In this document: in pieces, positions 1 to 62,961 of the stretch
Layout: each line of letters opens with the position of its first letter
Position numbering within the stretch: the first letter of the stretch is position 1
Origin: Schmidtea nova
Taxonomy: Eukaryota
DNA length: 64,000 nt
Direction of reading: 5' to 3'
NCBI GenBank assembly: GCA_044892505.1
Contig: CM097882.1
Coordinates: forward strand, 196,540,001-196,604,000
The notes under the pieces: model-generated
The model's database searches: none
The model's input: only the letters and a program-made list of their open reading frames with translations
Told to the model about the DNA's origin: nothing
Translations under genes and position numbers: made by a program

Positions 1-65
1 CTGGAAGTATTATCTGGATGTATATCTGGACAACTGTTGCTAGGTAGAATCATATAAAAATTCAT
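1..65 (-). CDS. Polinton minor capsid (penton) protein, N-terminus only (continues off window)
   Basis: ATG at 65-63 overlaps the integrase stop (ATGA). It reads MNFYMILPSNSCPDIHPDNTSS, matching the FY-x-x-LPSNS...PDNT-S start I recognise from Polinton pentons. Confidence 0.7.
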   Translation of the reverse strand, partial: MNFYMILPSNSCPDIHPDNTS

Positions 66-1108
66 TTTACTAGGTTTTTTGATGATATCCATGATGGTTC
101 TTTATATCCGTGCCACTTTACATAGTATTGTTTATCCTTACCCACCATTTTAGATTTCAGGATTTTTTGAATTCTAAATATTGTCGGTGGAGGAATAACT
201 TGTAATTCTTGTTCGTAGAATTTCCCACTGATTATATTGTTATCAGAGTCACAAATAGTATACATGACAGGATTCTGCACTGTGTTGACTTTCGATATTT
301 GATATACCTCATCACTCCAATTATTATCAAAATTTTTAATGAATGGCGATGCACTAATCTTGCTAATTCGAACATGATCACCAACTTTATATTTTGGTTT
401 CTTTACTTTTACTTCACTCACAATATTTTCAGTATCAACTACTTCTGCCGGTTTCCTGCCATTTATACCCCGATGAGCACTATGATTATAACTATGAATC
501 AATTGAGGTAAAACATTAATCCAGGTTTTATTGCCTTTAAAAACAAAGTATTTTTTCAATCGATCACGCAAAGTTCGATTAAATCTCTCGACATGAGCGG
601 CTTTGAATTGCGAGAATACCGAATAATGATTTATTCCCTTGATAACTTCCTTGACTTTACTGTTGTAAAATTCCTTTCCTAAAAAATATTAAAAATGTAT
701 AAATTTAAATTAAAATTTACCCAAATCGGTTTGTAAATTAGTTGGCCGATCCTTTTTCATCATTGTCTTGATAGCGATTGCCATGTCATTAGCTGATTTT
801 GATTTTACTCCAATTGCTCGAGCAAATCTACTGTAAACATCAATACGTGTTAAAATATACTTGTACCCCTTGTTAATAGCGGAATACGGAATCATTTCCA
901 TCAAATCCATTTGCCACAAATCATTGATTCTATATGTTTTATATGCTCGAGTTGGAAACCGTTTCAACATCGGTTTGTTTAGACTGTATGCAAGTTGCCC
1001 CGATAACCAACTTTGTGTCTGTTGTTTCGACTTCTGTGCTTTTTTCCTTAGCTTTTCGACTCCACCGAAACCGGCGTCGTCTTTTGGGTTCGTCCAGATC
1101 TTCTCCAT
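62..1108 (-). CDS. Polinton-type DDE integrase with C-terminal chromodomain; 2 exons (1108-721, 678-62), 334 aa
   Basis: Catalytic WQMDL / QTDLG / VERFN. Chromodomain tail KILKSK..YYVKWHGY..PSWI. A 42-nt GT..AG intron at 679-720 joins ORFs 710-1108 and 62-571 in frame (TDLG|KEFYNSKVKEVIKGINHYSVFSQFKAAHVERFNRTLRDRL). Confidence 0.92.
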
Positions 1109-1163
1109 TACAACAAGAAGATTTAAAGTTTAAATTTAAATTAGGTAATGATTGACCCATTGT

Positions 1164-1709
1164 TTATGACCTTTGTCCCAATAAACCAGCACCTCCCAAT
1201 AATGATAAAGCTAGTGGTAACAATGCAGCAATAAATCCTCCTTGTTGTTTATATATTATTTTGCGCATAAGTTTTCGATTTTTTGTTTTTACTAGCGACA
1301 ACAATGGTTTCTTATGCTTGTTCAAAACACGTCGATTAGATGGACTGAGATGCATTTTACCTAGTACTACTTTAATTAAAATAGCGAGTAAATCATCGAT
1401 AACGTAATTAGGAAACGATTGAAGAATACCCATTCTTCTAGCGGATGGGGCTTTAAGCAATGCATTAAAAAACGGAAAACTCCGATGATGTATTTGTTTA
1501 GCATTTGATTTCAAATTAATTGGAATTTGATTTTGTTTGGGAAAATTATCCATAATTAGTTTTTTCGATGGTGTATAACTTGTTTTTGAAACTGATTTTG
1601 AAACGGATTTCTTTGTCAATTTCTTTCTTCGACCTGCTTTCTTGCCTATTTTCATTGATTTTCGAGCTTTTATCAATCGTTCAAACTTTACTCGAGATTT
1701 CATTAACAT
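1164..1709 (-). CDS. Basic core protein with adenovirus pX/pVII-like C-terminal hydrophobic motif
   Basis: Lys/Arg-rich N-terminus. C-terminal QQGG|FIAALLPLALSLLGG resembles adenoviral pX (xxGG|FLPALIP...) and lies between ATPase and integrase. Confidence 0.6.
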   Translation of the reverse strand: MLMKSRVKFERLIKARKSMKIGKKAGRRKKLTKKSVSKSVSKTSYTPSKKLIMDNFPKQNQIPINLKSNAKQIHHRSFPFFNALLKAPSARRMGILQSFPNYVIDDLLAILIKVVLGKMHLSPSNRRVLNKHKKPLLSLVKTKNRKLMRKIIYKQQGGFIAALLPLALSLLGGAGLLGQRS

Positions 1710-1729
1710 TATTATTACTGTAAATCAAT

Positions 1730-2353
1730 TTAACTTTGTTTATAAACCATGGCTCCTTCCGGGTTAAAAATATCAGTTCTAACCCTTAAATCATCACTGC
1801 ATTGTTGAGTAAAATCAAGGAAAATATATCCATGAGGAGATTTTATAGCATCTTTAAAGGCTTCAATCAAAAAGTTACGATTAGAAGGATAAGCTTGTCT
1901 TGCCAGAAAATCAATAACTGTCGCATCTCTAGGATTTTTAAAAACAACAAGATATTGAACATTTAAATTACGAGTTCGATGACTACCGCCCTGATGAAAT
2001 AAATTCTGAGTTATAAAAATAACAGTAACACCTTTATGTCTACTGATTTTCGTAAATAAGTTATTGAAATCCTTTTCTTTATTTGCTTCTTGATACAAAT
2101 CGTCAATGATAATCACATCACCTTGTTTTAATCTAGATGACCAGTTTTTATCGAAACCTTTAATGATTGTCATTTTTATTTTACAAAACTGATCTTGTGT
2201 CATTCCGCTTTCATCGTCTGCACCCCTATGCCAATAAATATTATTAAATTTCGACTTGAATAATTTCGATTGCAATAATTTACAAACAAATAAAGTTTTT
2301 CCACTCCCGCTAGGACCAACAATTTGAAATACTGCATCATTTCTTAATTCCAT
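1730..2353 (-). CDS. Polinton A32/FtsK-like genome packaging ATPase
   Basis: Walker A GPSGSGKT, Walker B VIIIDDL, ITQNLF and RTRNLNVQYLVVFKNPRD motifs. Confidence 0.92.
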   Translation of the reverse strand: MELRNDAVFQIVGPSGSGKTLFVCKLLQSKLFKSKFNNIYWHRGADDESGMTQDQFCKIKMTIIKGFDKNWSSRLKQGDVIIIDDLYQEANKEKDFNNLFTKISRHKGVTVIFITQNLFHQGGSHRTRNLNVQYLVVFKNPRDATVIDFLARQAYPSNRNFLIEAFKDAIKSPHGYIFLDFTQQCSDDLRVRTDIFNPEGAMVYKQS

Positions 2354-2446
2354 ATTTAAAAATTATATTTAATTAATATTATTGTTTATATTTGTTTTAA
2401 ATACTGGTTCTCAAATAATTATTTCATTTAAAAAATATTTACAGTA

Positions 2447-7323: not shown

Positions 7324-8231
7324 TGGTCGTCTGTGTTGTACCAGACTTCGCGCCTGTGTGCGCAGTGGTTTAATTTTGGAAGAAATATATTTTGTCTCGC
7401 GTCCGTGTGCGCTTGGATGTCTCGCGTCTGTGTGCGCGTTGGTGGTGGTGTGGGATTTTGGTGAGATTGATTTTTATTTGTGTTGATTTTAGATTTTTAG
7501 AGTTGGTTTTTTGTTTGAATAATCAGTAACATGTTGGTCTTTCAAAACGGAGTTTCGGTCAAATTAATGGTGACATGGTCTGAAATTCAACTTAGTGATT
7601 TTGAGGAATTTGGCATTGAGAATGAGGTTCCAGTTGATTATAATTCTGTTATTTGTGTTAATGATGAAATTCGAAATAATGAATTGAATGAATTCATAGT
7701 CGGAGTGGATATTACGTCTTCGTTTTGTGTTCAAGAGCAGATACTGAATGGTGGTGAGAGAATGGTTGCATCAATTCAATTGCCAACTTCGATTGAAATA
7801 AAGAATTCATTGAATCAAAATGTGTTGAAAGATAAAAACATATTAATGTATAAAGCGAACAAGAGTGATATTATATATTGCTTATGTAGATTAAATGTTC
7901 CCAATGAATATGTGCACCAAGTTGTAAAACAAATATTTTCTGTATTGAATAATAATAGTTGTGAAATATATGTTTTATCGCGATTATCACTCAGCTGTTA
8001 TCTGAAACAAGATCTCAATGATGTTTTCCCGATAATTCGATGCTTATTTGTTGGTGGAATTTCAAATTCGAACATAAAATTGCTTGAGCCGCCAAATCTT
8101 TTGGTTGGATTACCGGCACAGATATTGACCTACTGTGCATTACACGGGTTGAAGGGAATTATCAATGCTGTTTATTTAGTTATGGAAACGAATAAAGATT
8201 ATTATTTGGCTGTTCAATTGATGATTTTACA
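7324..8231 (+). mobile_element. 908-bp insertion with TG..CA ends and 5-bp TSD CTGTT inside the hAT transposase
   Basis: CTGTT at 7319-7323 and 8232-8236 (alternatively a 6-bp ACTGTT duplication). Removing the insert restores the frame D-Q-T-V-I-M-V-N-Y-I-K. Confidence 0.8.
7531..8231 (+). pseudogene. PSMG1: Proteasome assembly chaperone 1 (PSMG1/PAC1)-like ORF carried on the insert, intronless, 3'-truncated or fused
   Basis: LLEPPNLLVGLPAQILTYCALHGLKG resembles PSMG1 LLEQPNIVHDLPAAVLSYCQVWKIPA; upstream CEIYVLS..YLK..PIIRCL also fits. The ORF reads on to 8286 in hAT DNA. Confidence 0.6.
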
Positions 8232-9639
8232 CTGTTATTATGGTGAATTATATAAAAATGAGACCATTAAAAACTCGACTCTTTAAACAACTTTGTTTGG
8301 CTATGGAAGCACAATATGAATGTTTGCTTCTCCTTACAGATGTAAGGTGGTTTTCACGAGGAAAAGTATTGAATCGTGTGTTACAACTTAAAAACGAATT
8401 AATGGTTTTCTTTGAAAGTGAAGGAAGTGAAATATCTTATAATTATCTCAATAATGAAGTGTGGTGTAATAATTTGGCTTACTTGGCCGATATTTTTAAT
8501 TATCTTAACTCGGTCAACACAAATATTCAAGGAAAAGAAGAAAATATTTTTACATCTACAGATAAATTATTGGCACTTCAAAAGAAAATTTCTCTTTGGA
8601 AAAATTATACCGAGGAAAAAATGTTAGACATGATTCCTTCAATGCAAAATCAAAATAACGAAAAATCTATTCCCAACATTCTAGAACACTTAAAAATATT
8701 GGAAGAAAACATTGCAAAATATTTTTAATCATTAAATGCAGAAAAATATGATTGGATCAGAAATCCGTTTATTTCATCAAACACATCAGAATTTTCAATA
8801 AACGAAGAAGAAGAATTAATTTCTCTTTCTTCGGATCGTAGTTTGAAACTAAAACATTCAGAAATGACTCGTGATGAATTTTGGATTTCCTTTAAACAAG
8901 AATATCCTCTGTTATCTGAAAAAGCGCTCGTAATTTTGTTACAGTTTTCAACTTCGTATCTATGTGAACTAGGATTTTCTACATTAACAAATATAAAAAC
9001 TAAAAGCGTGAAAGATTGGGGAATTTAGAAAAGGAAATGCGAGTTGTGTTGTCTTTTATCCGACCTGATATTTCTAAAATTTGCAAGAAATACAATTCAA
9101 ACATATCACATTAGTTTTTGTACTATTTTATTTTTGTTGTATCTATGTTTGCGTGTGAATTGCACTGTGAATGTTTAATTATTTTTCGTGTAAATTTTTC
9201 TTTGTTGAATAAATTTGTTTTTTTGGTAATGTGTGTTTATATTTTATATCTTCAAGACCATTTATTAACAGAGGATGGTTCAAAAGTCGTTTCATTATTC
9301 AAAAATGAAATAATATGTTCGTTTGTGATTTTTTGTCAGTGTTCCGTGTAAAAAAAATCATGTGAATGGTGTTCCGCGCTTTTAAATTAGTTGAGAACCA
9401 CTGCTCTACAGTGAATAAGTAAATGGAATTAATGATAGTTTGTCGAAAGATTTGTTCCTCTAAGGTTGCTCAAAAATTTGTGTCCTTCACAATTAACTGC
9501 TCCTAATATGATGATAAAAATCTCTTAACAAATCGCTAGAAAACTTTGCTGCTAAAATGAATGTGTGTGCGAAAACAATGCTAAATGCTTTATGATATAA
9601 TATTCTGGTTTTGTGTTTTTGTTGTGTGTGTTCTCGACT

Positions 9640-17262: not shown

Positions 17263-20200
17263 TGTAATTATAAAGATTCTTGTGCTTTGTGACCTATCAC
17301 ATTATAGGTTAATGGCAACGTAATATTTCATTAAATATTACGTTGCAGTTTTTCTTTAATCTCTAAATAATTGATCGTTAAATAAATATTAACCTTATTT
17401 CTATTTTTCTTTTAGCAATGGGTGTACAAGCTATCACGGCTATATTTAAAAAATATTGTGAAGGAGATGTTGTCAAGGGAGCGGAGGAAATTGAATTGAA
17501 GAGTCAATTGTTAGGAGCCTTCTCACATATGGGTCAGCTACTTCCTCTTCGTTTACAATGAGCAGCTTTAGACATATGGCGCCATCAGAAAGATCTCGCA
17601 AAGACCCCACTCATGCCACTCTGGTGAAGGCTTTCGGACTAAGCCCGTTTTCGAAGCATTTTAAATCGAGATGGCTCGTATTTTGGCTCTTTAAAACGCC
17701 CCGGGGAGCTGGCAAGAATAATCGATGAAGGAATCACCGTGGATTTTGTTGTTGGTCTCCCAGCCGCAGTATCGAAGGCATTGCAAATTACGGGGATGGA
17801 CGGCTAGGAGATTTTTATTGAAAAAGCTCAAATATTATCGGAGGGTGAAATCCCAGAGATGCACAAAGCGTGGAAAACAGAAGCTATGAGTGCTATCGTG
17901 TCAAAAAAGAAATTCAAATTCAAATGTTTCACATGTGATGAAGAAGGTCATTTTGGCAGAGAGTGTCGGCGTCCGAAAAACTTCATGGGGAAGCAGTTTC
18001 CTTCAGAACAACAATGTACGAATCCAAGTAAAACACGGTATTGCTTTGGTATATTCAGGCAGTTCTCAATTGATTCTGCGAAAATATCGGTTCAATGGAA
18101 ACTACGTGTCTAGTAAATGGATCGTTACTGTTGATGATCGAAAATTAGAATAAAGGAAAGATTCAATCGGTAATAGATTTCCGAGAGTTAAACGAGTGGG
18201 TCGAATATCACACAGGGGACAGTGACGTCTGCTCAGAGACGAAGCGTTAGCGGCGTCGAATGGGAGTAGAAGGAGTTCTTCTTGATTTGCGTAATGCTTA
18301 CTTGCAGATTCCAATTGAAAAGAACCTGTGGCGCTATCAAGTGGTTCGATTCGTGGAAAGACTTACTGTTTAACTAGCTTAGGATTTGGTTTAAACTGCG
18401 CTCCAAGGATAATGTGAAAAATCTTGCAAAGGGTGCTTTCTTCTAATGCCGTCATTCGAGATGCCAAATTCAGCTATATTGACGACATAGCAGAGGACTT
18501 ATCAAAGGCGGATCCGAAGGCTTGTTTGAACTTAAGACCAAAGATCCGGTACCCATCGCAAATGCAAAGGCGTTAGGGCTCTCTATTTTTCATAGAAAGC
18601 AAAGAGCTGAGGTGAAAGAGAGGAAATCAACTCAAGAACCTTGACGTAAACGAGTCATTCTCAAGACAAAAATTATTTTCTATTTGTGGTCACGTGATTG
18701 GGCACTATTCAGTGGCAAAATGGTTGGGAGTTACCTGCAGCTTTATTAAGCGGTTGAACGACGGAGATTTGTTGAATGACTATGTTGATGCCGAGGGCAA
18801 ACGACTTCTATCAGAGCTGAAGATCCAGTCAAAGGAATTTGGCTTGTAAGCAGATGCAGCGAAGGAATAGTTTGGCGCGGCACCAGTAATCTTGCACTGA
18901 TGGTCTGTCTAGAAATCAACAGAAACATAGATGAAGATGTCTCGTGGTTACAAAAGAAGGACAATTATTTACACATTAATGTCGCAGAACTAGATGCCGT
19001 TTTGAGTGGTATTAATCTTGCGGCTAGATGGAGAGTTCAAAGATTATCCATCATATCGGATTCAGCCACTGTCTTCAAATGGGTTGAGAACATTCTGTCG
19101 GGAAAGATGAAAGTGAATACCAGCAGCAGCTCCGAGATGTTGGTTAAATTGTGACTTGGTATGATCAAGTACTTAGAAGACGAGCTTGGACTAGAAATAT
19201 CCATCTAACTCGTGAAATCAGAAAAAAATGTAGCGGACACTGGCGCGGGTACACAAAGCGTGGATGAAATATTGATCCCCACTCATTGCTGGTGCTTCTC
19301 AGTCTTTAGTGTCCAAAATGCATGGGAAGCATCATCTGGGCATCAATCGAACGCTTTACTTAACAAAATATGATCTAACGATTAGCTACAATATGGTTAA
19401 GGAAACTATCAATTCGTGTAATAAGTGTAAGATGTTTGATCCGGTTCCAATAACCTCTGAGAAAAGTACTTTGTATGTGAATGATGAATGGACCAGAATT
19501 GCTGCTGACGTTGTTTTTCTTTCAATTGCAGATTGCGGGCCTAGCAGATTTTGCATCTTGGAAGAAGATTTTTAATGACGATTCGGTTTTCATTATCAAT
19601 GCTTTGAATACTGTGTTTCTGGAAAAGGGTTCAGTAAAAGAAACTCTGACGGATAACGGTTGCGAACTTTTGATTTGCTGAGTTCAAACTTTTTGCAGAT
19701 ATGTGGGACGTTAATCTAAAATATCGTCGCGCCGACAGACCCGAAGGGAATGGCATTGCAGAAAAAAACCACAGAACTATCAAGCGGATAGTTGAGAGAT
19801 CAGGCTGTGAACCACTAATAGCGGTCTTGTTTTATAATATCACTACTTATTCAGGCTTGGACGATAATACAGTACCTGCAAAGATTCATTTTGATCGAAA
19901 GTGGAGGTGCTCGAAATTGCTGGGAGACAAAGACAAATTTGATAGTCGCGAAAATTATGATTCAAATTAGTATGCTGTGGGGAATTTCGTATTCATATAC
20001 CCTGGGCCGTTTATACGATCACCGGAATCAATTCATCAACCAACGTAAGTCGATGGCACTTCGAGACACTTCAATAATCTTTGAAGGGTATCCAATTCCG
20101 GTGATATTATTGAACGAACAGAACTAATAAGCGACAGGGACCGAGATGATCCAGAATTTATTAGTTTAGTTTCACTAAGAACGAGAAAAGAGCGCTAGCC

Positions 20201-20356
20201 ACCAGAATGACTGAAAGACTATGAAATTGATGTTAAGATCATGGGGGCGTGTAACGATGCAGATTCTTGTGTGTCATGAACTATTACATCATAGGTTAAT
20301 GGCAACGTAATATTTCTTATCATTCTTTCTATTTGTCTTTTAGAAATGGATGCACA
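17263..20356 (+). mobile_element. Ty3/Gypsy LTR retrotransposon A (old, degraded)
   Basis: LTRs 17263-17428 and 20250-20356 (TG..CA; 3' copy internally deleted). TSD AATAT on both sides; PPT GATCATGGGGGCG. CCHC knuckle CFTCDEEGHFGREC, RT LDLRNAYLQI, RNase H HINVAELDAVL, integrase NGIAEKNHRTIK, all broken. Confidence 0.92.
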
Positions 20357-40900: not shown

Positions 40901-43900
40901 TTGCTCTTGTTCTATGTATGACCGATACATCTGACTCGTATTCACATATGGATTCTCTATCACCTAAAAAATAACATAATAAAATTTTAATATAATATAT
41001 ACTTCGGTTTCTTTAATGTGTTCTTTATATAGTTTGCCAGTAAAATGGTGAATGATGATACGCCTATTAATTGCCTTTTGTATCTCAGGGCCAATGTTGT
41101 CGGGAAAGAAGTTTTCCAAAGTATTTATGCAGAATATTCTCGGTATGCATTTCGGTATTATGGCGACGGAATATTTTATATTAATACAGTTTTCAAATGC
41201 AAGATCGACAATACTTAAAAACTCTGACGAGTTAAGCTTGTTAAAATATAGGTCGTCAAAGACAATGCCATCGGATTTCGTGATGTCGCTAGAAACTCTT
41301 CCTAGCATCTGCATATGTTTGACATGTACCGGGCATTTAAAATGGCTTAGAGCAAAGTTGGTTTTGCCGATGCCAGTTTCACCAAGGAATATATGGCTAC
41401 GCATATCATGAACGTCAACTGCAGGCTCAACAAAATCCACAAAATTGGACATCGTAGGCTTACCGTACTCATTCAGCAAGCTCTCAACAATAACTTTTCG
41501 TTTAGTTAAATAATGGAAAGGTTCTTTTTCTTTAATATGCTGTAATGCCTCGGTGTTTGAGTTGAATTGCAAACAAGCTTTAAAATTATTTTCAAAAGTA
41601 CGCTTACTCTGCTCTCCATATACGATTGATATCCCATTGGGCCTCCTTGTCTCGAGTTTGGTGGCGTATTGGTATACCGATGCGCGCTCAGTAGCCGGAT
41701 GCCCTTTTTTTGTATTGGGCTCGGACAGCGCTGATTGTGTAATTTCTGCTAGTCTCGAGCATGCACTGCAGATGTTTGAAAACGTTATCGCCAACCTCTT
41801 CCTGCGCAACAAAGAACTTTGTAAGAGCAGCATCGTTCCATAGTGCGCGTAATTCGTCTTCATGCTGTTTGAAATATTGCATGCTGATATTGAATGACCA
41901 TATGTAGAATCGCTTTCTAAACACATTATCGTTCTTATGGTTTGTTGAATTTCCCATGGCGGCAGCAGAGTCGCGATTAATCGTTGCCACCATTGAGCTA
42001 GTTTCCAGGTCTCTATATCGTGCAATATTTGCCCGAACTTCATCGAATGAAGACGATGCAGTGCGCTGCGGAGACTGACGCATACCGTGCACCTGTCCTG
42101 ATGGCACATCGAAAGATGACGACTGTCCGGGTTGAATGCCATCTTCACCTCGTACGCGTTTACACCGGATCGGTGGATGGTCCCGCAAGTCGTTTATTAG
42201 TGTGTTTAGCAGCTAGATAAATGATGAGATATGGTACTATAAAAAATTAAATTACTTGTATTTCGTACCATCTTACATTTCTTTGTGCTCGGCTTATACA
42301 TGGTGCTTCTTCGTTATCGTCAATTGCAGTGATGAACTTTGAAACCTCAAAAACTGTCTGTCTTATAGGCATATTTAATAGCACAAAATAGCACAAAATA
42401 GCACAAAATAGCACAAAATAGTACAAATAGTACAAAATAGTACAAATAGTACAAAATAGTATAAATAGTATAAATAGTACAAAATAGCACAAAATAGTAC
42501 AAAATAGCACGTCACGAAAAGGTTAAAGTACATGTTATACAAAGAAAGTTGATTTAAAAATATACAGTTGCATGTTATACACAGGATTTTAGGGTACTCT
42601 GAAAAAAAACTTGTGAACTATAGTCTTTAAAATAAAATTATTAAAAATTTTTTTAATTTTACCTGATAATTCCTTCGTGACTTTCGATTTTCGCAATAAT
42701 TTTCATATGTTTACCCTTTTCTCCAAGAATAGCACGAATTTCATCAATAGCCGACCCACTTCTGATGAAGCTTGCAAACACCATGTCTAGCTAGATCAAT
42801 TTTATTTTATATTAATATAATGTTGTTATAACTTCTTGTTCTGCTGCAAATATTAAATCTTGTTTATCTTTCTCAGAAACAGCTGGTAAATCAACATTTT
42901 GACCTGGCATATTTATGCCTTTTTTAGAACCCAAAGTTCCTCCATTTTCGATTAAACATTTTATTTCATTTGCTCCTATAAAAATGTCGAAAATTAAATA
43001 ATCTTTTAACAATTTAAACCTAAAATTTCCATTTATCAAAATTAAAAATTTTAATAACAGAAAATATTACAAGATGGAAGTTTAACTTTAACATTTTCAA
43101 ACAGATCAACGGGGTATTAAAGAAGTCAAAAGATTTTAACGATAAACAGAATTTATTTTATTAAAAATTGAATTAATTCATTGAAAAATTATAATTTAGA
43201 GCGCATATATAGTTGGACCGTGCAACTATTTATAATGAAATAATTTGATATCGAAAAATTGCACTCACTTTGGGTTGAAGTTGGCTTGATAATAGACAAA
43301 ATAATAATTAACTGTTGTCAGTAATTGTTAATTGGCGACTCCCTGGAATAGATCGTTATCTGGCTGAGGTTTGCATTCTTTTATACAATCTGTAAATGAC
43401 AATTTCAACTATTGTGAAAAAAACAATTCTTCAGTTTTTTTTGAACTATTGACTCAATATTTCTTGCAGTTTTAAAATATCGAATATTGTCGACACATTC
43501 AAAAAAATATTCTTTTCTTGATAGCACAAAACATAAGAATTATTAAGAAATTTATTTATGGAAACTAAAGATTTTTTTCCGCTTTTAACCTTGCTAAGGC
43601 CATGTGGGGTAATTGTGTACCCCAGCATCATATTTTTTTGAAAATTTCTGTTAAATCTAGAAACTACCGCATTCACTCTTGAGTTATTCCAAGTGTGATC
43701 ATTTAATATCACTTTGCATCAATTTCATCACAAAAAAAAGAATCCTATTCGCATTTATTGGGATTATATGATAGTCTTAGAACCAACATGAAACAGTTTT
43801 ATCCGACTAGCACATTAAGATAAACTACCTATAGCTGCTTTTGGTACAAGTGATAGTTATTCACTCTGTACTCATAAACAAGATCGCAAATGTCGAAAAA

Positions 43901-51886: not shown

Positions 51887-54800
51887 TGTGAGATAATAAG
51901 ATAATTCAAAAATATTTATTCATTCAATAAATTTACTTATTTGAACAACTTTCTTTTCTTTTAAAAATCATTATTTTTAATTATTCTTCTTTATACATCT
52001 CCCCGAGATTCTGACAAATCTTCATTCCTGTGCCTCAAATCGGTCAGGACGCGGCATTGCCACGGTTCCGTAATCGACGATTGCTTTATGGGGAGACAGT
52101 AGCTTCATGATTCTTCCTCTCATCCAGGAAGATGTACATGGTTGATTTTGCGCGGGTTTCACCCACACCTTGTCGTTAATCTGAAAGCCATTGTCTATTT
52201 GTTGAGCCGTTCTTTTCGTTTCATTAAATCGATGTCTTAAGTCATAAGCGTAAATGCCTTTTATCGGGGGTCTGAAAGAACCATTTACTGGTATATTATT
52301 GTACCAGTAAATTGCTTCTTGCACATAGCATTCCGATTGCATGACTGCAGCTTTTATTGTTTTATGGTTCCACTTAATAATGCCGTTGCCTGCTGGTCTA
52401 TTAGTGGATCTGAATTCAGTTCTAATTTTTCACTTTTTCATTAGAGAAGTGAAAGTTTCTGACCTAAACGATAAGTAATTGTCCAACAGAAGCTCGTCAG
52501 GAGGTCCTCTTTCATAAAATACCTGTTCCAACTGTTTGCGAACGCCGTGTTACACGTATGTTTCATAATCCAATTTGAGGGAATTTTGGTTAATATGTCG
52601 GATTTATTTTTGTCTGTTGGAACGTATTCTATTTCAACCTTTATCTCATATTCAATAATTAGTTCTTTAATAACTTATTTACTAACTTATTTACTAAATT
52701 CTTATTTACTAACATTTCTGAGGAAGCTTTAGTTGAAACCTTTCTCTCGGATGTCAAGGCATTATGCACCCAACTTACCACGGATTTGTTATTCGACATG
52801 ATTTTTACTGTCTTTAAAATCCATTTGATGCATAAATTGATGCCTTTAACGATCGCCTCAAGTTCGCACAGGTTAATGTGCCTAACGTCATTCTCCTTTC
52901 TCAACCAGCATGCGTCTTCCACGATATTTCCGTCGATTTCTAGTGCTGCTCTTATGGCGATAGAGCTTGCATCACACCATAAAATGTTTCCTCTGTCCAT
53001 TGGTGTTTTCCATATACCATGAGCCGGATTATTCTTTTCAACCTCCTTAATTAACCATTTAACTTTGTATAGGTTTTGTACGCCGATTGGCCGGTCCCAT
53101 TCTCCTTCGCTTAATCGTTTGAGATAAGAGCACGCGGGTCGTAACCAACCTGCAACTGGAAGAATTCCGGTTAATTGACCGCATAATTAATACAGTTCTC
53201 GTCTATGTATTATTTTATTGTTTTATTCTGTCATTTAAACCCTACACGTAATTAACGATCTCTGTCATAATACCGGGAGCGATATTGATTCCGAAGCCTA
53301 GTCTCATCAATGTATATCGCCTTCCGTTTACAATGCATGACTGGTACTTCCACATACTCTCATCAACCCGGATTTGCATGTACGCATCAGATAAATCCAA
53401 AATCGCTATTTTCTTTCCTTTCTTTCTCCAATCTTTTATTGTTTCATTGCAAACTACTGCTTCTCCACTGTAGACGTCTAAATAATGATTTAAAGCTCTA
53501 AAATCGAACACTGGCCGTATTTTGCTCTTGTTCTTTTGCATAACCGGAAATAAAGTTACTGCTCTGACAGGCTTACCGAACCGGTTTTCGTCATATTCGA
53601 CTAACTATCCATTTTTGATCACTGCTCGATGACTTTGAGTGCTTGGCCTGCTTTGGGCTTATCTGGATCTAACTTGGAATATCGATCTGACATAGATACT
53701 GAGGGTTCTGTGTTCCAATTCCATGATACCATCCATTCTTTGTTGAACTTTGCTTCGAAGTTCATCCTTTGAATTAAAAAACTCTGAGCTTCGTTTCCGT
53801 TTACAACCCTCAAACATTTCAATTCACATCCGAATCTGACGTTTTCACTAATTGTCACTCCTCCTAGTGCTATAATGGCGTTCATACCTAATATGACTTC
53901 ATATCCCGCTATCATTTTTATAGAAATGTAACAGTCAATTATAAAGTACTTTCCTTCTAATTCGATTTCTGCCTTGTTCTGGCTCACCGGCAGTATCAAT
54001 CCATCTGCTAAAAACACGAGCGTTGGGTGACGTGATGGCTTCTCCGCGTATAATTGTTGTCGAGCATCCGGAATCTATAAGACATAGCCGTTTTGATCCA
54101 TTTATAGAAAGAAGTCTTTCTTTTAACATCTTTTTGGGATCGAGAGAGACTCTTGAATATTCTTGATCCCTTTGTCCTTTCCCGATTTACAATATTTGGA
54201 TTGGTGTCCGAGCATTTCACACCTAGAACATTGAATTTTTTCTTGTTCAGACAGTTACTGGCAAAATGGTTTTCATTACAAATATAACATTGCACCTTCT
54301 TTATCTTCATTGCAAAGGCAGACTGATGTCCATGAGCTAGATTCAGTCGTCAAGCGATGTCACCAATTGCGTCGACCGTCGTTGATCCTTGACATCTCAC
54401 CTCAGCTGCGATTTCTACTGGCAAGGAGTTGATTACAATGTTTATTGATAGATCTCCAGCGTTAAAAGCCAGATTCTTCATTTTTGATAAATGAATGTTA
54501 ATATTGTCCCCGATCTGGAATGTCTACTTGCTTCTGGGGGATCGCTGAAAGCTCGTATCAATGATATTTTAATTTCTTCATAACTAATATCTTCGTTTTC
54601 GCTGCTTCCTTCAAAGTGATAAATTCCTTCCCCTTCATGACAGCAGGTAAAATTTCTTTTTTTTCCATTGAACTTGTGAAGCTTGCATATTAATTCAAAC
54701 TTATCGAACCATTTATCGATTTTCATGTTTTCATCGTCAAAACATTCTATTGCACTCAATATATCTTTTATCATGCCCGGATAGCTTGTGAGATAATAGG

Positions 54801-54896
54801 ATAATTCAAAAATGTTTATTCATTCAATAAATCTACTTATTTAAACAACTTCTTTTCTTTTAAAAATCATTATTTTAAATTATTCTTCTTTATACA
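51887..54896 (-). mobile_element. Ty3/Gypsy LTR retrotransposon B (internally deleted)
   Basis: 110/111-bp LTRs 54787-54896 and 51887-51997 (about 5 substitutions + 1 indel); TSD GTTTA; PPT GGGGAGA. gag with CYICNENHFASNC, protease IDSGC, RT LDLSDAYMQI, RNase H WCDAS, integrase C-terminus. Confidence 0.93.
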
Positions 54897-59195: not shown

Positions 59196-62100
59196 TGTGA
59201 TAAAAAATGTTTGAAATAAAGCTCGATTCAGCGTTTATTCTTTATTACAAGATTCTTTTTCAAATTCTGTTTCTCTTTGAAAATCACTCGATATAAACAA
59301 ATCTATTTTCTTTTAAATTGATTATCTAAAATAAATTAATTATCACATTCCCCCGTGATCAGTACGACGAATCCAACTCGTACTGATCAAGATAGGAAGG
59401 CTTCCTTCGGTTGCGAGCCAAGCGCGTGTCTTCCTCACTCTCTTCTGGATTTCTGATGTCAACCTGATTGTCTTCAAATTCGCATTCGACATCGCTGGAT
59501 TTGATAGATTGATTTGGCAACACTCGGATGTCTGCAACATGACGCGGTACACCGTCAACCTCTACGTTGGTAGGTGAATTAATGCCAGTGATGATTCCAC
59601 TGGACCACTGATCAGTGCATTTGGTCGGAACTGGCTTTATAACAACATTCTGACCAGTTTTAAATTTACTAGATACTACGCGCTCCTCCTCGACATCTCT
59701 GTGAAATTTCCATTGGTACTTAAATAGCCCCTCTGATGGAGCTGTACTCTGATTCTTCGCGTCTTTGGGTGCCATGTTATACCAATAAACAATGTCCCGT
59801 TGGTCTGAACGACTCCTGGCTGCATGGGATTTTATTGTCCGGTGGTTTCTCTCCACGATACCATTCCCAGATGGACGGTAGGCACATATGTATGTCGGCT
59901 TTACATCCCATCTACAACATAAATCTTGTAAAGATTTAGAATGAAAACTAGGCCCATTGTCCATGAGTAGCTCACGAGGCGGACCTCTCTCTCGAAACAC
60001 TTCTTCGAGATTTTTCACAATATTTTGTGCATCTTCATTTGGTATCCTTCTCCAAATTGCAAATCTGCTAGGCCCACAATCAACGATAGTCAAGAAAATG
60101 GATCCTTCGTAGTGCGTTACATCTACAGCTAGTCTTTCCCAATTTTTATCGAACCCTAATGATTCATTTTACCACTTAAATGGCGACGGATCGATAGATT
60201 TACATTCAATACAATTTCTTACCACATTTTTATGAGGTCTCGTGGGGTTTCTGGGTTTTCTAACTGAATGAAATAAATAGATTTTTCCAGACCAAAATGG
60301 TTTTTGTTGTGACGGTTTCTTACTTGTTCTGACGATAAGCCCACGCAGCCAAAGGATGCTCTAGACTTCAACCACCTCTTTGGAATGCGTGTCAGTATAT
60401 CTGCTCGGTTTTCCGCTGATTTAACCAATTGCACCTGAATAAGAATTCTGTCATTCTTGATAATCTCTTTTATTATTCCCAAGCGACGTCTTATCAGAGT
60501 CTCTGAAATTCCATGGACACGAATCTTACATTCATTGTTAAGAACTGTTCTCAACCAGCCTACTACCGTCGCCGAATCCACCATCAGCTCGATTTTTTAA
60601 CGCCCCATTTGATTGCTAAGTTTACGCCTTTAAGAACTGCATCGAACTCAGCGACGTTTGTATGTGAATGATCATCACTTTTCCTGAGTCAAGTTGTATC
60701 CTCCACGACGTGGCCATTTATCACTAATACGACACCCAGTGCTAAACTGCTAGCATCACACCATAAAGAACAGTGATCCCTGATGTTTACAGTCCAGCTT
60801 CCTTTGACTGGATCGTCCATTTCAATGAGACTCGTCACTTCAGTCAATCTCGATTCGCACTCTGTTCCGACGAGATCATCCCAATTTGTACCATCCGCAA
60901 TTCTCTTGATAAAACTGCAAGCCACTCTGAGTCACCCCGCGACCGGATAATGCCCAATAAGCTTTCCACAAATAGAAAACAATTTACGCCGAGTAACTTT
61001 ACCTTCAATTGGGTCAACTATATTTCCTCTTGACCATAACAGGTTACCGTGACGATTGCGTTCAATTTTTAAACCGAGAACCTTTGTATCCACTAACAGT
61101 TCCACTGGCTTCGTTACTAATCTATATTGAGCCAAATGTTTCACCACTTCATCGATACTGACCAAACTCGTGTTAACAGCTATGTCATCGATGTAATGAT
61201 CTGTCGCATTCAGGATTCGCGAATCGAGACTCAGCACCTTTCTCAACATTGAGGACATTATCTTTGGAGCACAACTAAGACCAAATCCTAGTCTTGTAGG
61301 ATAATACGTCTTCTTTTTGTAGCGAATCCTTTGGAATTCCCAAAGATCTTTGCTTACATGCAACTGCAGATAAGCATTTCTTAGATCAAGCATCGATAGC
61401 TGTTCTCCCATCTGTCTCCATCGTTTTAGGCTCTCACCACAAACATCACTATCGCCAGTGTGACTCTTCACAAATTCATTGAGTTCCCTAAAGTCAAGAA
61501 CGAGTCGAACTTTTCCTTTGTTTTCTTGTATTGCAGAATTCCGCAGCCGGTTTCTTCAGCGAGGGTTAGCCAGCTTTCCATTATCCATCGCTCTACTTCA
61601 ACTTCATATTCTTGTCGCACTTCAGGCTTAATTGCGTATTCGGCAACGTTGTTCCGCAAGTCTTTCCATTTCCAAGATATTGTCCACTTGTCTCCGTCAA
61701 AACTTGCAGCGAAATCCTCATCGTCGATCTTCACTTGTTCTTGAACTAAAACCCGCATGAATACTCAAGTCCATTCACCAAACTGTACTCCATAATTGTC
61801 AATTGAGACTCCTCCAAGGCGTTCAATCGCATCGAGACCTAAAGTAACATCCACTCTGGTTACAAGATTCGACATTATTAAGCAATTTAACAAAAAACTT
61901 GTTCCTCGAACAGATAAATGACACTGACTCTCCTTCACAGTGGACTCTTCTACCATCTACTGCAACAACAACTCTGGCTTCACAACTTCCTTCTGCACAG
62001 ATACGGGAAACAATGGTTTGCGAACATCCAGAATCGACTAGTCCAGTGCACAATTTTCCATTCACTCTGAGTCTGACAAGTACTCGCGCAATACCTGACA

Positions 62101-62961
62101 TCACTGAGAAACCGCTGGCGCTCCAGTTTCTCTTTTGGCGTTTCCCTGTGCGTTTGAAGAGCATTGTCTCGACGAATGCCCTTTGATTCCACATGTCCAA
62201 CACTCTTGAGAGGGGTATTTATTTTTGAAATGTCCGGATTTTCCACATCCGTAGCAAAGTTTGACTTCTTTACCGGGCGCAAAACCACTTCCTTTCACTG
62301 CAATTAGACCAGTGGAGCCATTTTGTTCTGATATTAGTGCTCGAGCTTGTCGAACAACTTCTGAGAGATTCATTTCGAAGATCATTGATGAAGCTCTGAG
62401 TTAGTGGGAAACCATTGATGGAAGTCCGACTACAAATGCTCTCTTGAGAAGCCCATCATCATTTATTCCAGCCAGCGTAGCTAATCGCTGCAAATCTGTA
62501 AGAAAAACATCAACTGGCTCACCATTCCACAGACGATTGCGAAACGTGTCATATGCCTAGAATCCATCTATCGAAAAGGCATCTGTTAGGGATTTTTCAG
62601 TTGCGTCGATGTTTTCTTTGTCCTTCTCCGTCAGGTGATCATAAACAAGAAAAGCTTGTCCATCAAGCAGTAATGGGAGAAAGAAGGCCAAATCTTCGAT
62701 TTTTTTATGCTTGGCCACTAACTTCAGCTTCTTAAGCCAAGTTGAAAACTCACCTACTCCATCGTAGGGCTTGATAAATTTTTGCAACTCCATTATAGCC
62801 GCGATAGCTTGTGATAAAAAATGTTTGAAATAAAGCTCGATTCAACGTTTATTCTTTATTACAAGATTCTTTTCCAAATTCTGTTTCTCTTTGAAAATCA
62901 CTCGATATAAACAAATCTATTTTCTTTTAAATTGATTATCTAAAATAAATTAATTATCACA
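59196..62961 (-). mobile_element. Ty3/Gypsy LTR retrotransposon C (youngest; 3766 bp, complete domain set)
   Basis: 152-bp LTRs 62810-62961 and 59196-59347 (2 differences; 7-bp TGTGATA..TATCACA); TSD AAGGG/TAGGG; PPT GATCACGGGGGAA. gag with two CCHC knuckles, protease VDSGC, RT YIDD, RNase H WCDAS, integrase DDE (VD..MDNG..VERNH), with frameshifts. Confidence 0.95.
59343..62793 (-). pseudogene. gag-pol of element C (multiple frameshifts/stops)
   Basis: ORFs 62557-62793, 62101-62385, 61823-62203, 61468-61758, 60932-61471, 60689-60925, 60219-60584 and 59359-60093 form a gag-PR-RT-RH-IN order. Confidence 0.9.

Follow-up and report, generated by a model that had tools for sequence, protein, structure and literature searches.

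The priming modes of LTR retrotransposons distinguished in the available text of a survey (PMC6317226) are the use of a tRNA 3' end, the use of a half-tRNA and self-priming, with no site detected in 6% of cases. Canonical 3'-end priming is found in retroviruses, Ty1, Ty3, most Gypsy elements and BEL. Half-tRNA priming (Drosophila copia, yeast Ty5, plant Osser, Bryco and Bianca, fungal Helenus and Copia partners) makes use of a 3'-truncated tRNA generated by an internal cut; according to the accessible portions of PMC6317226 and PMC10886601, half-tRNA sites are complementary to the anticodon arm and have been described from Copia lineages only. In the Tf1/sushi group (S. pombe Tf1, Tj1; plant Tcn1, TAR lineages), the primer is a short 5'-terminal piece of the element's own transcript, of 11 nt in Tf1, which RNase H frees from an RNA duplex at the primer site (available sections of PMC7175516 and PMC4600332), the Tf1 enzyme cutting that duplex between bases 11 and 12 (PMC7175516, same sections). 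The evolutionary order of Tf1-type self-priming and tRNA priming is debated, as far as the accessible part of PMC3601003 goes.

The window studied here is a stretch of 64,000 nucleotides of the Schmidtea nova genome (contig CM097882.1, positions 196,540,001 to 196,604,000). It contains a decayed LTR retrotransposon, designated element C (59196-62961, minus strand), with the following parts:

62810..62961, minus strand: 5' LTR of element C, 152 nt, TG...CA, with 2 mismatches in 152 against the 3' LTR
62798..62809, minus strand: candidate primer-binding site AGCTATCGCGGC of element C, adjoining the 5' LTR, exact complement of host tRNA-Phe(GAA) nt 1-12
62101..62793, minus strand: gag of element C, with two zinc-knuckle-like motifs and a frame interrupted by stops
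59359..62100, minus strand: pol of element C (protease, RT, DUF7047, RNase H, integrase), with stops and frame changes
59348..59357, minus strand: polypurine tract of element C, a G run plus AA, adjoining the 3' LTR
59196..59347, minus strand: 3' LTR of element C; the flanking 5-bp target duplication agrees at 4 of 5 positions

The features expected of an LTR retrotransposon were present, both in structure (direct terminal repeats TG...CA, target-site duplication, polypurine tract) and in gene set (gag, protease, RT, RNase H and DDE integrase). Profile matches of pol comprised DUF7047 (E 2.8e-7), RVT_1 (E 5.2e-6) and rve (E 4.6e-13), and the acidic motifs of RNase H were found. Stop-start coupling of gag and pol, considered for the junction in element C, was discarded, since relatives show a -1 frame and no fixed ATG; pol was in the -1 frame at 31 of 33 gag-pol junctions of relatives.

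An earlier note on this DNA had described a site directly after the LTR, followed by TATA-ATG, and had read it as the complement of nt 1-12 of a tRNA resembling tRNA-Phe. Both statements were borne out. Along the minus strand, the terminal CA of the 5' LTR leads without spacer into AGCTATCGCGGC (62809-62798); TATA comes next (62797-62794), and gag opens with its ATG at 62793, so that the observation of the site is confirmed. Its plus-strand form, GCCGCGATAGCT (62798-62809), is exactly the start of the host tRNA-Phe(GAA). When tRNA-Phe plus CCA was compared with the site region of element C, nt 1-12 gave the longest match, the 18 nt of the tRNA 3' end agreed over 4 nt only, and complementarity to the anticodon arm of tRNA-Phe was not found. 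A TGG start able to pair with the CCA end, sought after the LTR, was absent.

The elements analysed here share with canonical 3'-end primers a host tRNA, a site directly after the 5' LTR, a polypurine tract, TG...CA LTRs and a 5-bp target duplication, but they lack the TGG start and the match to the tRNA 3' end. They differ from half-tRNA users in pairing with tRNA nt 1-12 and in having the integrase after RT-RH, although the proposed internal cut and 3'-truncated tRNA would be alike. As for Tf1/sushi elements, the short primer would likewise be the 5'-terminal piece of an RNA; there, however, it comes from the element's own transcript, whereas here the match is to a host tRNA. The primer-site complement that Tf1/sushi elements carry in the LTR was absent from the LTRs of all three elements of the window (A, B and C), where the longest self-complement of the site was 4 nt. 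The value for LTR C agrees with the earlier note, which had seen no complement there and had argued against Tf1-style self-priming.

These comparisons bear on the idea that the tRNA is bound for packaging, dimerisation or control of gag translation, with priming left to a hairpin, a protein or a distant site for a tRNA 3' end. The location of the site a few bases ahead of the gag ATG would suit such a role, and the available text of PMC5371799 describes additional contacts of Ty1 and Ty3 with tRNA regions other than the 3' end. The site nevertheless sits where minus-strand synthesis has to begin, next to an LTR that is followed by no TGG and in a region matching the tRNA 3' end as poorly as described above. 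Hairpin-forming material is likewise scarce, with a self-complement of 4 nt in LTR C and, among the 46 loci from outside this genome that were scored (up to 700 nt upstream), of 4-7 nt in 45 and 9 nt in one. We regard a non-priming role as very improbable; the 12 bases after the LTR are likely a primer-binding site for a short 5'-terminal piece of tRNA, to judge from their sequence and position.

The word GCCGCGATAGCT occurred 3292 times in the 1.25-Gb genome, in comparison with 6 occurrences of a reversed control, and its abundance is therefore not due to chance. In 2511 of the 3292 matches the word ran on into CAG. Two Phe array loci were scanned (7 and 13 tRNA-Phe(GAA) genes); in both, ARAGORN called the tRNA from the first G of GCCGCGATAGCT, and every pattern position checked was a gene start. 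The word without CAG was found at 781 places, and the first 30 fetched were all LTR-end-like, belonged to several families and contained a tRNA in no case, with CA preceding the word in 28 of 30 and an ATG within 18 nt in 26 of 30. The tRNA genes themselves form tandem arrays of great length in this genome, with units of 240 bp for Phe (G000:C1:566.9 Mb, L031-L040), of about 419 bp for Lys(TTT) (G000:C3:72.8 Mb, L072, L073) and of 243 bp for Met(CAT) (G000:C2:282.5 Mb, L320). Genome-wide, the first 15 nt of tRNA-Phe had 2511 matches and those of tRNA-Lys(TTT) 682.

Sites of the same kind are present in the two other elements of the window:

54775..54786, minus strand: site AGCTATCCGGGC of element B, exact complement of host tRNA-Lys(TTT) nt 1-12
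17429..17440, plus strand: site AGCTATCACGGC of element A, one base off the host Phe type

Element B (51887-54896) and element A (17263-20356), the latter an old copy, are both flanked by perfect 5-bp target duplications. The plus-strand word of element B, GCCCGGATAGCT (54775-54786), differs from GCCGCGATAGCT of element C at positions 4-5 alone, as had been claimed from the sequence. It had 1127 matches in the genome, 682 of them with CAG next; three loci of this latter class were scanned, and tRNA-Lys(TTT) arrays were found in two and no tRNA in the third. Among the first 30 loci of the bare word, CA preceded it in 30 and an ATG followed within 18 nt in 29. Calculated duplex energies of the cognate combinations of site and tRNA were -22.7 and -23.5 kcal/mol; swapping the partners gave -14.6 kcal/mol. 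The further suggestion of the earlier note, that independent families track different tRNAs, holds for element B with its tRNA-Lys(TTT), but not as a general rule, since the Phe site is common to most families of this genome, in which two tRNA classes are represented and not a separate one for each family.

Conservation over 111 sites, in 45 flank groups, was confined to the last three bases of the LTR and the 12-mer, within which the values are inflated because sites were selected by pattern. Past tRNA nt 1 it dropped to 0.25 bits at the next base (45 flank groups), in line with the earlier claims that the match stops exactly at nt 1 and that nothing is conserved beyond the 12 nt. The comparison across members that the earlier note had called for placed free variation at tRNA positions 4-6 among the 45 flank groups, the flanks being unconserved. 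The length of 12 nt was the same for three tRNA types.

Could the 12-mer be a relic or structural motif whose likeness to a tRNA is fortuitous? Look-alikes do arise, as illustrated by an unrelated repeat of 187 copies that carries such a word without a matching host tRNA. This word, GCCGTCATAGCTTG, accounted for 14 of the first 100 matches to a loose site pattern and was considered as a third class of primer site. It was rejected: no host tRNA has it, and it lay inside the unrelated repeat in 20 of 20 loci, with no gag start after it in any of the 20. The repeat (L155-L174, about 187 copies) carries a cysteine-rich reading frame, and its 12-mer resembles the sites by chance. For the elements themselves, on the other hand, the matches to two host tRNAs are exact and both end at nt 1, variants found elsewhere equal the fly tRNA-Phe or approach tRNA-Met, and a naive estimate that allows for 60 tRNA types puts the probability of a chance match at about 4e-6 for each family. 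The chance or relic reading is already largely refuted, and we give it scarcely any credence.

To describe the copies in this genome independently of the motif, we sampled 100 loci through RT or DUF7047 (60 of the 150 in one listing and 40 of the 150 in another). A gag start was missing from the stretch in 21 of the 100 loci, and 80 gag starts were scored. The exact Phe site was present at 61 of them, with one change at 16, two or three changes at 2 and no site at 1; 79 of the 80 thus had a site within three changes of the Phe type. Among copies with two LTRs, the 5-bp target duplication was perfect in 31 of 39 and agreed at 4 of 5 positions in 3 more, and the perfect duplications sat directly after the CA of the 3' LTR. 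Between the G tract and the TG of the 3' LTR there were 1-3 variable bases. A 12-mer after the 3' LTR was seen in none of these 39 copies. At one locus, L175 (4502-4515), the 12-mer and two further bases stand between a 3' LTR and unrelated sequence; this copy has no target duplication and is therefore no proof of primer copying. Genome-wide, the loose site pattern was not enriched (1786 matches vs 2486 for the control), and no Met-type class of site was found in this genome (80 matches vs 104 for the control). A fly-type word, GCCGAAATAGCT plus YR, had 9 matches here, of which one lay at the site of an element and none belonged to a tRNA.

Relatives of the element are found well beyond this genome. 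Longer relatives of its RT numbered 439 at E <= 0.001 and included named ones from Hydra, Trichuris and Watersipora, and the nearest Atlas clusters with DUF7047 were eukaryotic and, where known, most often arthropod; none occurred in viral contigs. A scan based on RT yielded 78 metagenome loci, 50 with a gag start and 28 without, the gag starts being located with a profile seeded from 32 motif-bearing ones. A 12-mer of the tRNA-5' kind preceded gag in 49 of the 50, and the 50th was cut off. In primer sense, the types were GCCGAAATAGCT (16 loci), GCCGCGATAGCT (12), GCCGTGATAGCT (8), GCCGGGATAGCT (2), GCCTCGGTAGCG (2), GCCCGGATAGCT (1) and others (8), counts in which some loci represent one element in different samples. 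The most frequent type, GCCGAAATAGCT, corresponds to the end of a Drosophila tRNA-Phe 5' probe given in the available part of PMC7038984. In GCCTCGGTAGCG, from two outside elements, the first base is changed to C, and agreement with nt 1-12 of the tRNA-Met(CAT) of this genome reaches 11 of 12 and includes the change at position 12. Outside sites of the GCCGTG-, GCCGGG- and GCCGAG- types are presumed to pair with the tRNAs of their own hosts.

Some outside sites deviate from the pattern. Those of L084, L085 and L123, which represent two lineages, miss one G and pair at 11 positions only with an offset; the G is missing from the end that faces tRNA nt 1-2, a loss that slippage at the 5' end of a primer would produce. 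At L105 the base opposite tRNA nt 2 is mismatched. Two further families (L089-L091 and L115) have sites that differ at three positions, and by inspection one tRNA start could pair with both if two G-U pairs are allowed. Sequencing runs matching outside locus L074 were sediment metagenomes only, one of them with most of the stretch; they contained no variant at the site, which was covered by a single contig.

The distribution of site types was followed on trees built from single RT pieces (73 rows in one, 48 in another). At least 21 changes of site type were required on the RT tree, in comparison with a mean of 28 for shuffled labels. A single clade of fly-type sites was rejected (p-AU 1e-6), and a single clade was not rejected either for the Phe-type families of this genome (p-AU 0.34) or for the Lys-type rows (p-AU 0.09). 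Polyphyly of the Phe-type families of this genome, a candidate conclusion, was dropped as unsupported in view of the former value. These data indicate that, at the level of sequence, the type of primer site is labile across the tree; the Phe and Lys clades that were not rejected, together with fewer changes than in the shuffles, mean that the trees do not demonstrate host rewriting over plain inheritance.

Placement of the element group was addressed through its domains and predicted fold. As in Ty3/Gypsy elements (Metaviridae), the integrase lies after RT-RH, and the order gag-PR-RT-RH-IN, the zinc knuckles, the -1 gag/pol frame and the H2C2 plus rve integrase are shared; domain order and -1 frame are Gypsy-like. 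The elements studied here, however, match RVT_3 and DUF7047 and not the Gypsy-type RNase H profiles. Among aligned members, DUF7047 was present in 21 of 21 and RVT_3 in 20 of 21, and Gypsy-type RNase H (PF17917/PF17919) was absent among the 25 of 27 families listed for the 21 members, the other two families occurring in at most one member each. The BEL/Pao domains Peptidase_A17 and DUF5641 were also absent among the families listed for the 21 members. The order with integrase before RT that defines Ty1/Copia was not found, nor were the DIRS features of a tyrosine recombinase with no DDE integrase and no target duplication, as an rve integrase and 5-bp duplications are present; we take the RT-RH motifs of the group to resemble those of DIRS elements in spite of the DDE-type integrase.

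The predicted structure of pol (mean pLDDT 87) gave fold matches to retroviral, spuma/foamy and caulimoviral proteins at 10-17% identity only, and profile matches in the PDB were weak and mostly to integrases. Neither the PDB matches nor the viral ones in the fold comparison were close enough to place the lineage. The pol was very remote from all named reverse-transcribing elements, with DUF7047 after the RT core and an RVT_3-type RNase H. We have therefore filed the group of element C as an LTR retrotransposon of unplaced lineage and not as a member of Gypsy; its pol (59359-62100, relatives P0001-P0120) may represent a separate deep lineage.

In this group, a 5' piece of the tRNA very probably serves as the primer, as judged from the sites and their host tRNAs. 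Minus-strand synthesis would start at the end of the LTR, and the only partner there is the 5' terminus of a tRNA with nt 12 facing the LTR, so that a 3'-OH would be needed at that point. We propose that Gag would help to open the acceptor and D stems of the tRNA, and that nt 1-12 would pair with the element RNA, the pairing ending at the LTR edge, where a cut would give the 3'-OH. This cut would fall near nt 12 and would probably be made by the element RNase H at the end of the duplex, in a Tf1-like manner but in trans. RT would then extend the cut tRNA piece directly into U5. Run-off of plus-strand synthesis at the 5' end of the primer is proposed as the reason for the sharp end of the site at tRNA nt 1, and it would enable the host tRNA to rewrite the site. 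The 1-3 variable bases before the TG of the 3' LTR suggest that the integrase may trim two bases, in which case a cut after nt 10, 11 or 12 would be possible and the primer could be 10-12 nt long.

The agent of the cut is the point at which two readings diverge. The boundary between tRNA nt 12 and 13 falls inside the D stem and not in a loop, and this, together with a single length of 12 nt for three tRNAs, points to a ruler set by the element. That the 5' piece primes and that the RNase H of the element cuts it free is, on balance, the somewhat more probable course of events. The same piece might instead be made by the host, either as a 5' fragment or through cleavage of the tRNA by one of the host's nucleases; the product would anneal to the site and have its unpaired 3' overhang trimmed to the LTR edge. 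All the sequence evidence fits this possibility equally well, but host 5' tRNA fragments are usually longer than 12 nt, and one fixed length for three tRNAs, ending in the D stem, is simpler with the element as the cutter. A host precedent is offered by the internal cut of Ty5, attributed to host RNase P in the accessible text of PMC5371799. Host production appears unlikely to us, while deserving serious consideration.

Retrons form branched RNA-DNA from a 2'-OH, and in a third version the tRNA would remain intact, RT starting in the same fashion from an internal 2'-OH near nt 12. This would give the same geometry and would require no cut. It is, however, without precedent among LTR elements in the available parts of the priming literature, and the modelled fold of pol looks like those of ordinary retroviral-type PR-RT-RH-IN proteins; a start of this kind seems highly doubtful. 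Returning to a cut tRNA piece as the primer, we tentatively put forward a broader formulation, possible although short of probable: an unnamed, deep and widespread animal lineage of LTR elements, with DUF7047 and a non-Gypsy RNase H, would prime in a fourth way, in which a tRNA (Phe, Lys or Met) is opened at its 5' end and cut in the D stem by RT-RNase H, the 12-nt piece primes, and the site is rewritten according to the tRNA of each new host. Altogether, the earlier reading of the site as the complement of a tRNA 5' end is supported and is extended to a widespread lineage, the act of priming being what we infer from these sequences.

Other features were observed in the window. An integrase with a chromodomain lies beside a P-loop ATPase or helicase ORF at 62-2362 (minus strand), a region that presumably forms part of a Maverick/Polinton-type element. 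An ORF at 7519-8286 (plus strand) matches PAC1, a proteasome assembly chaperone (E 1.6e-11), and is probably a host gene. At 40964-42193 (minus strand) there is an open frame of 409 aa with no Pfam match.

The literature searched, including the available portions of PMC7472051 and PMC7773854, yielded no description of a primer site that pairs with tRNA nt 1-12; Repbase, GyDB, most subscription journals and bioRxiv supplements lay outside the search, and an earlier mention there is possible. Four site words had no match in one supplement of PMC10886601, and site and tRNA words searched as letters returned only probes and unrelated primers.

If true, priming with a piece of the tRNA 5' terminus would add a fourth mode for LTR elements to the three distinguished in the available text of the survey, and it would link Tf1-type self-priming mechanically with tRNA priming. 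It would mean that RT or a host enzyme cuts a tRNA at a fixed point of the D stem and that a 12-nt RNA is extended. Annotation tools seeking TGG-type sites would likely return 'no PBS' for the whole group, of which the host genome carries hundreds of copies, and the natural competitors of these elements would be 5' tRNA fragments and not 3' ones.
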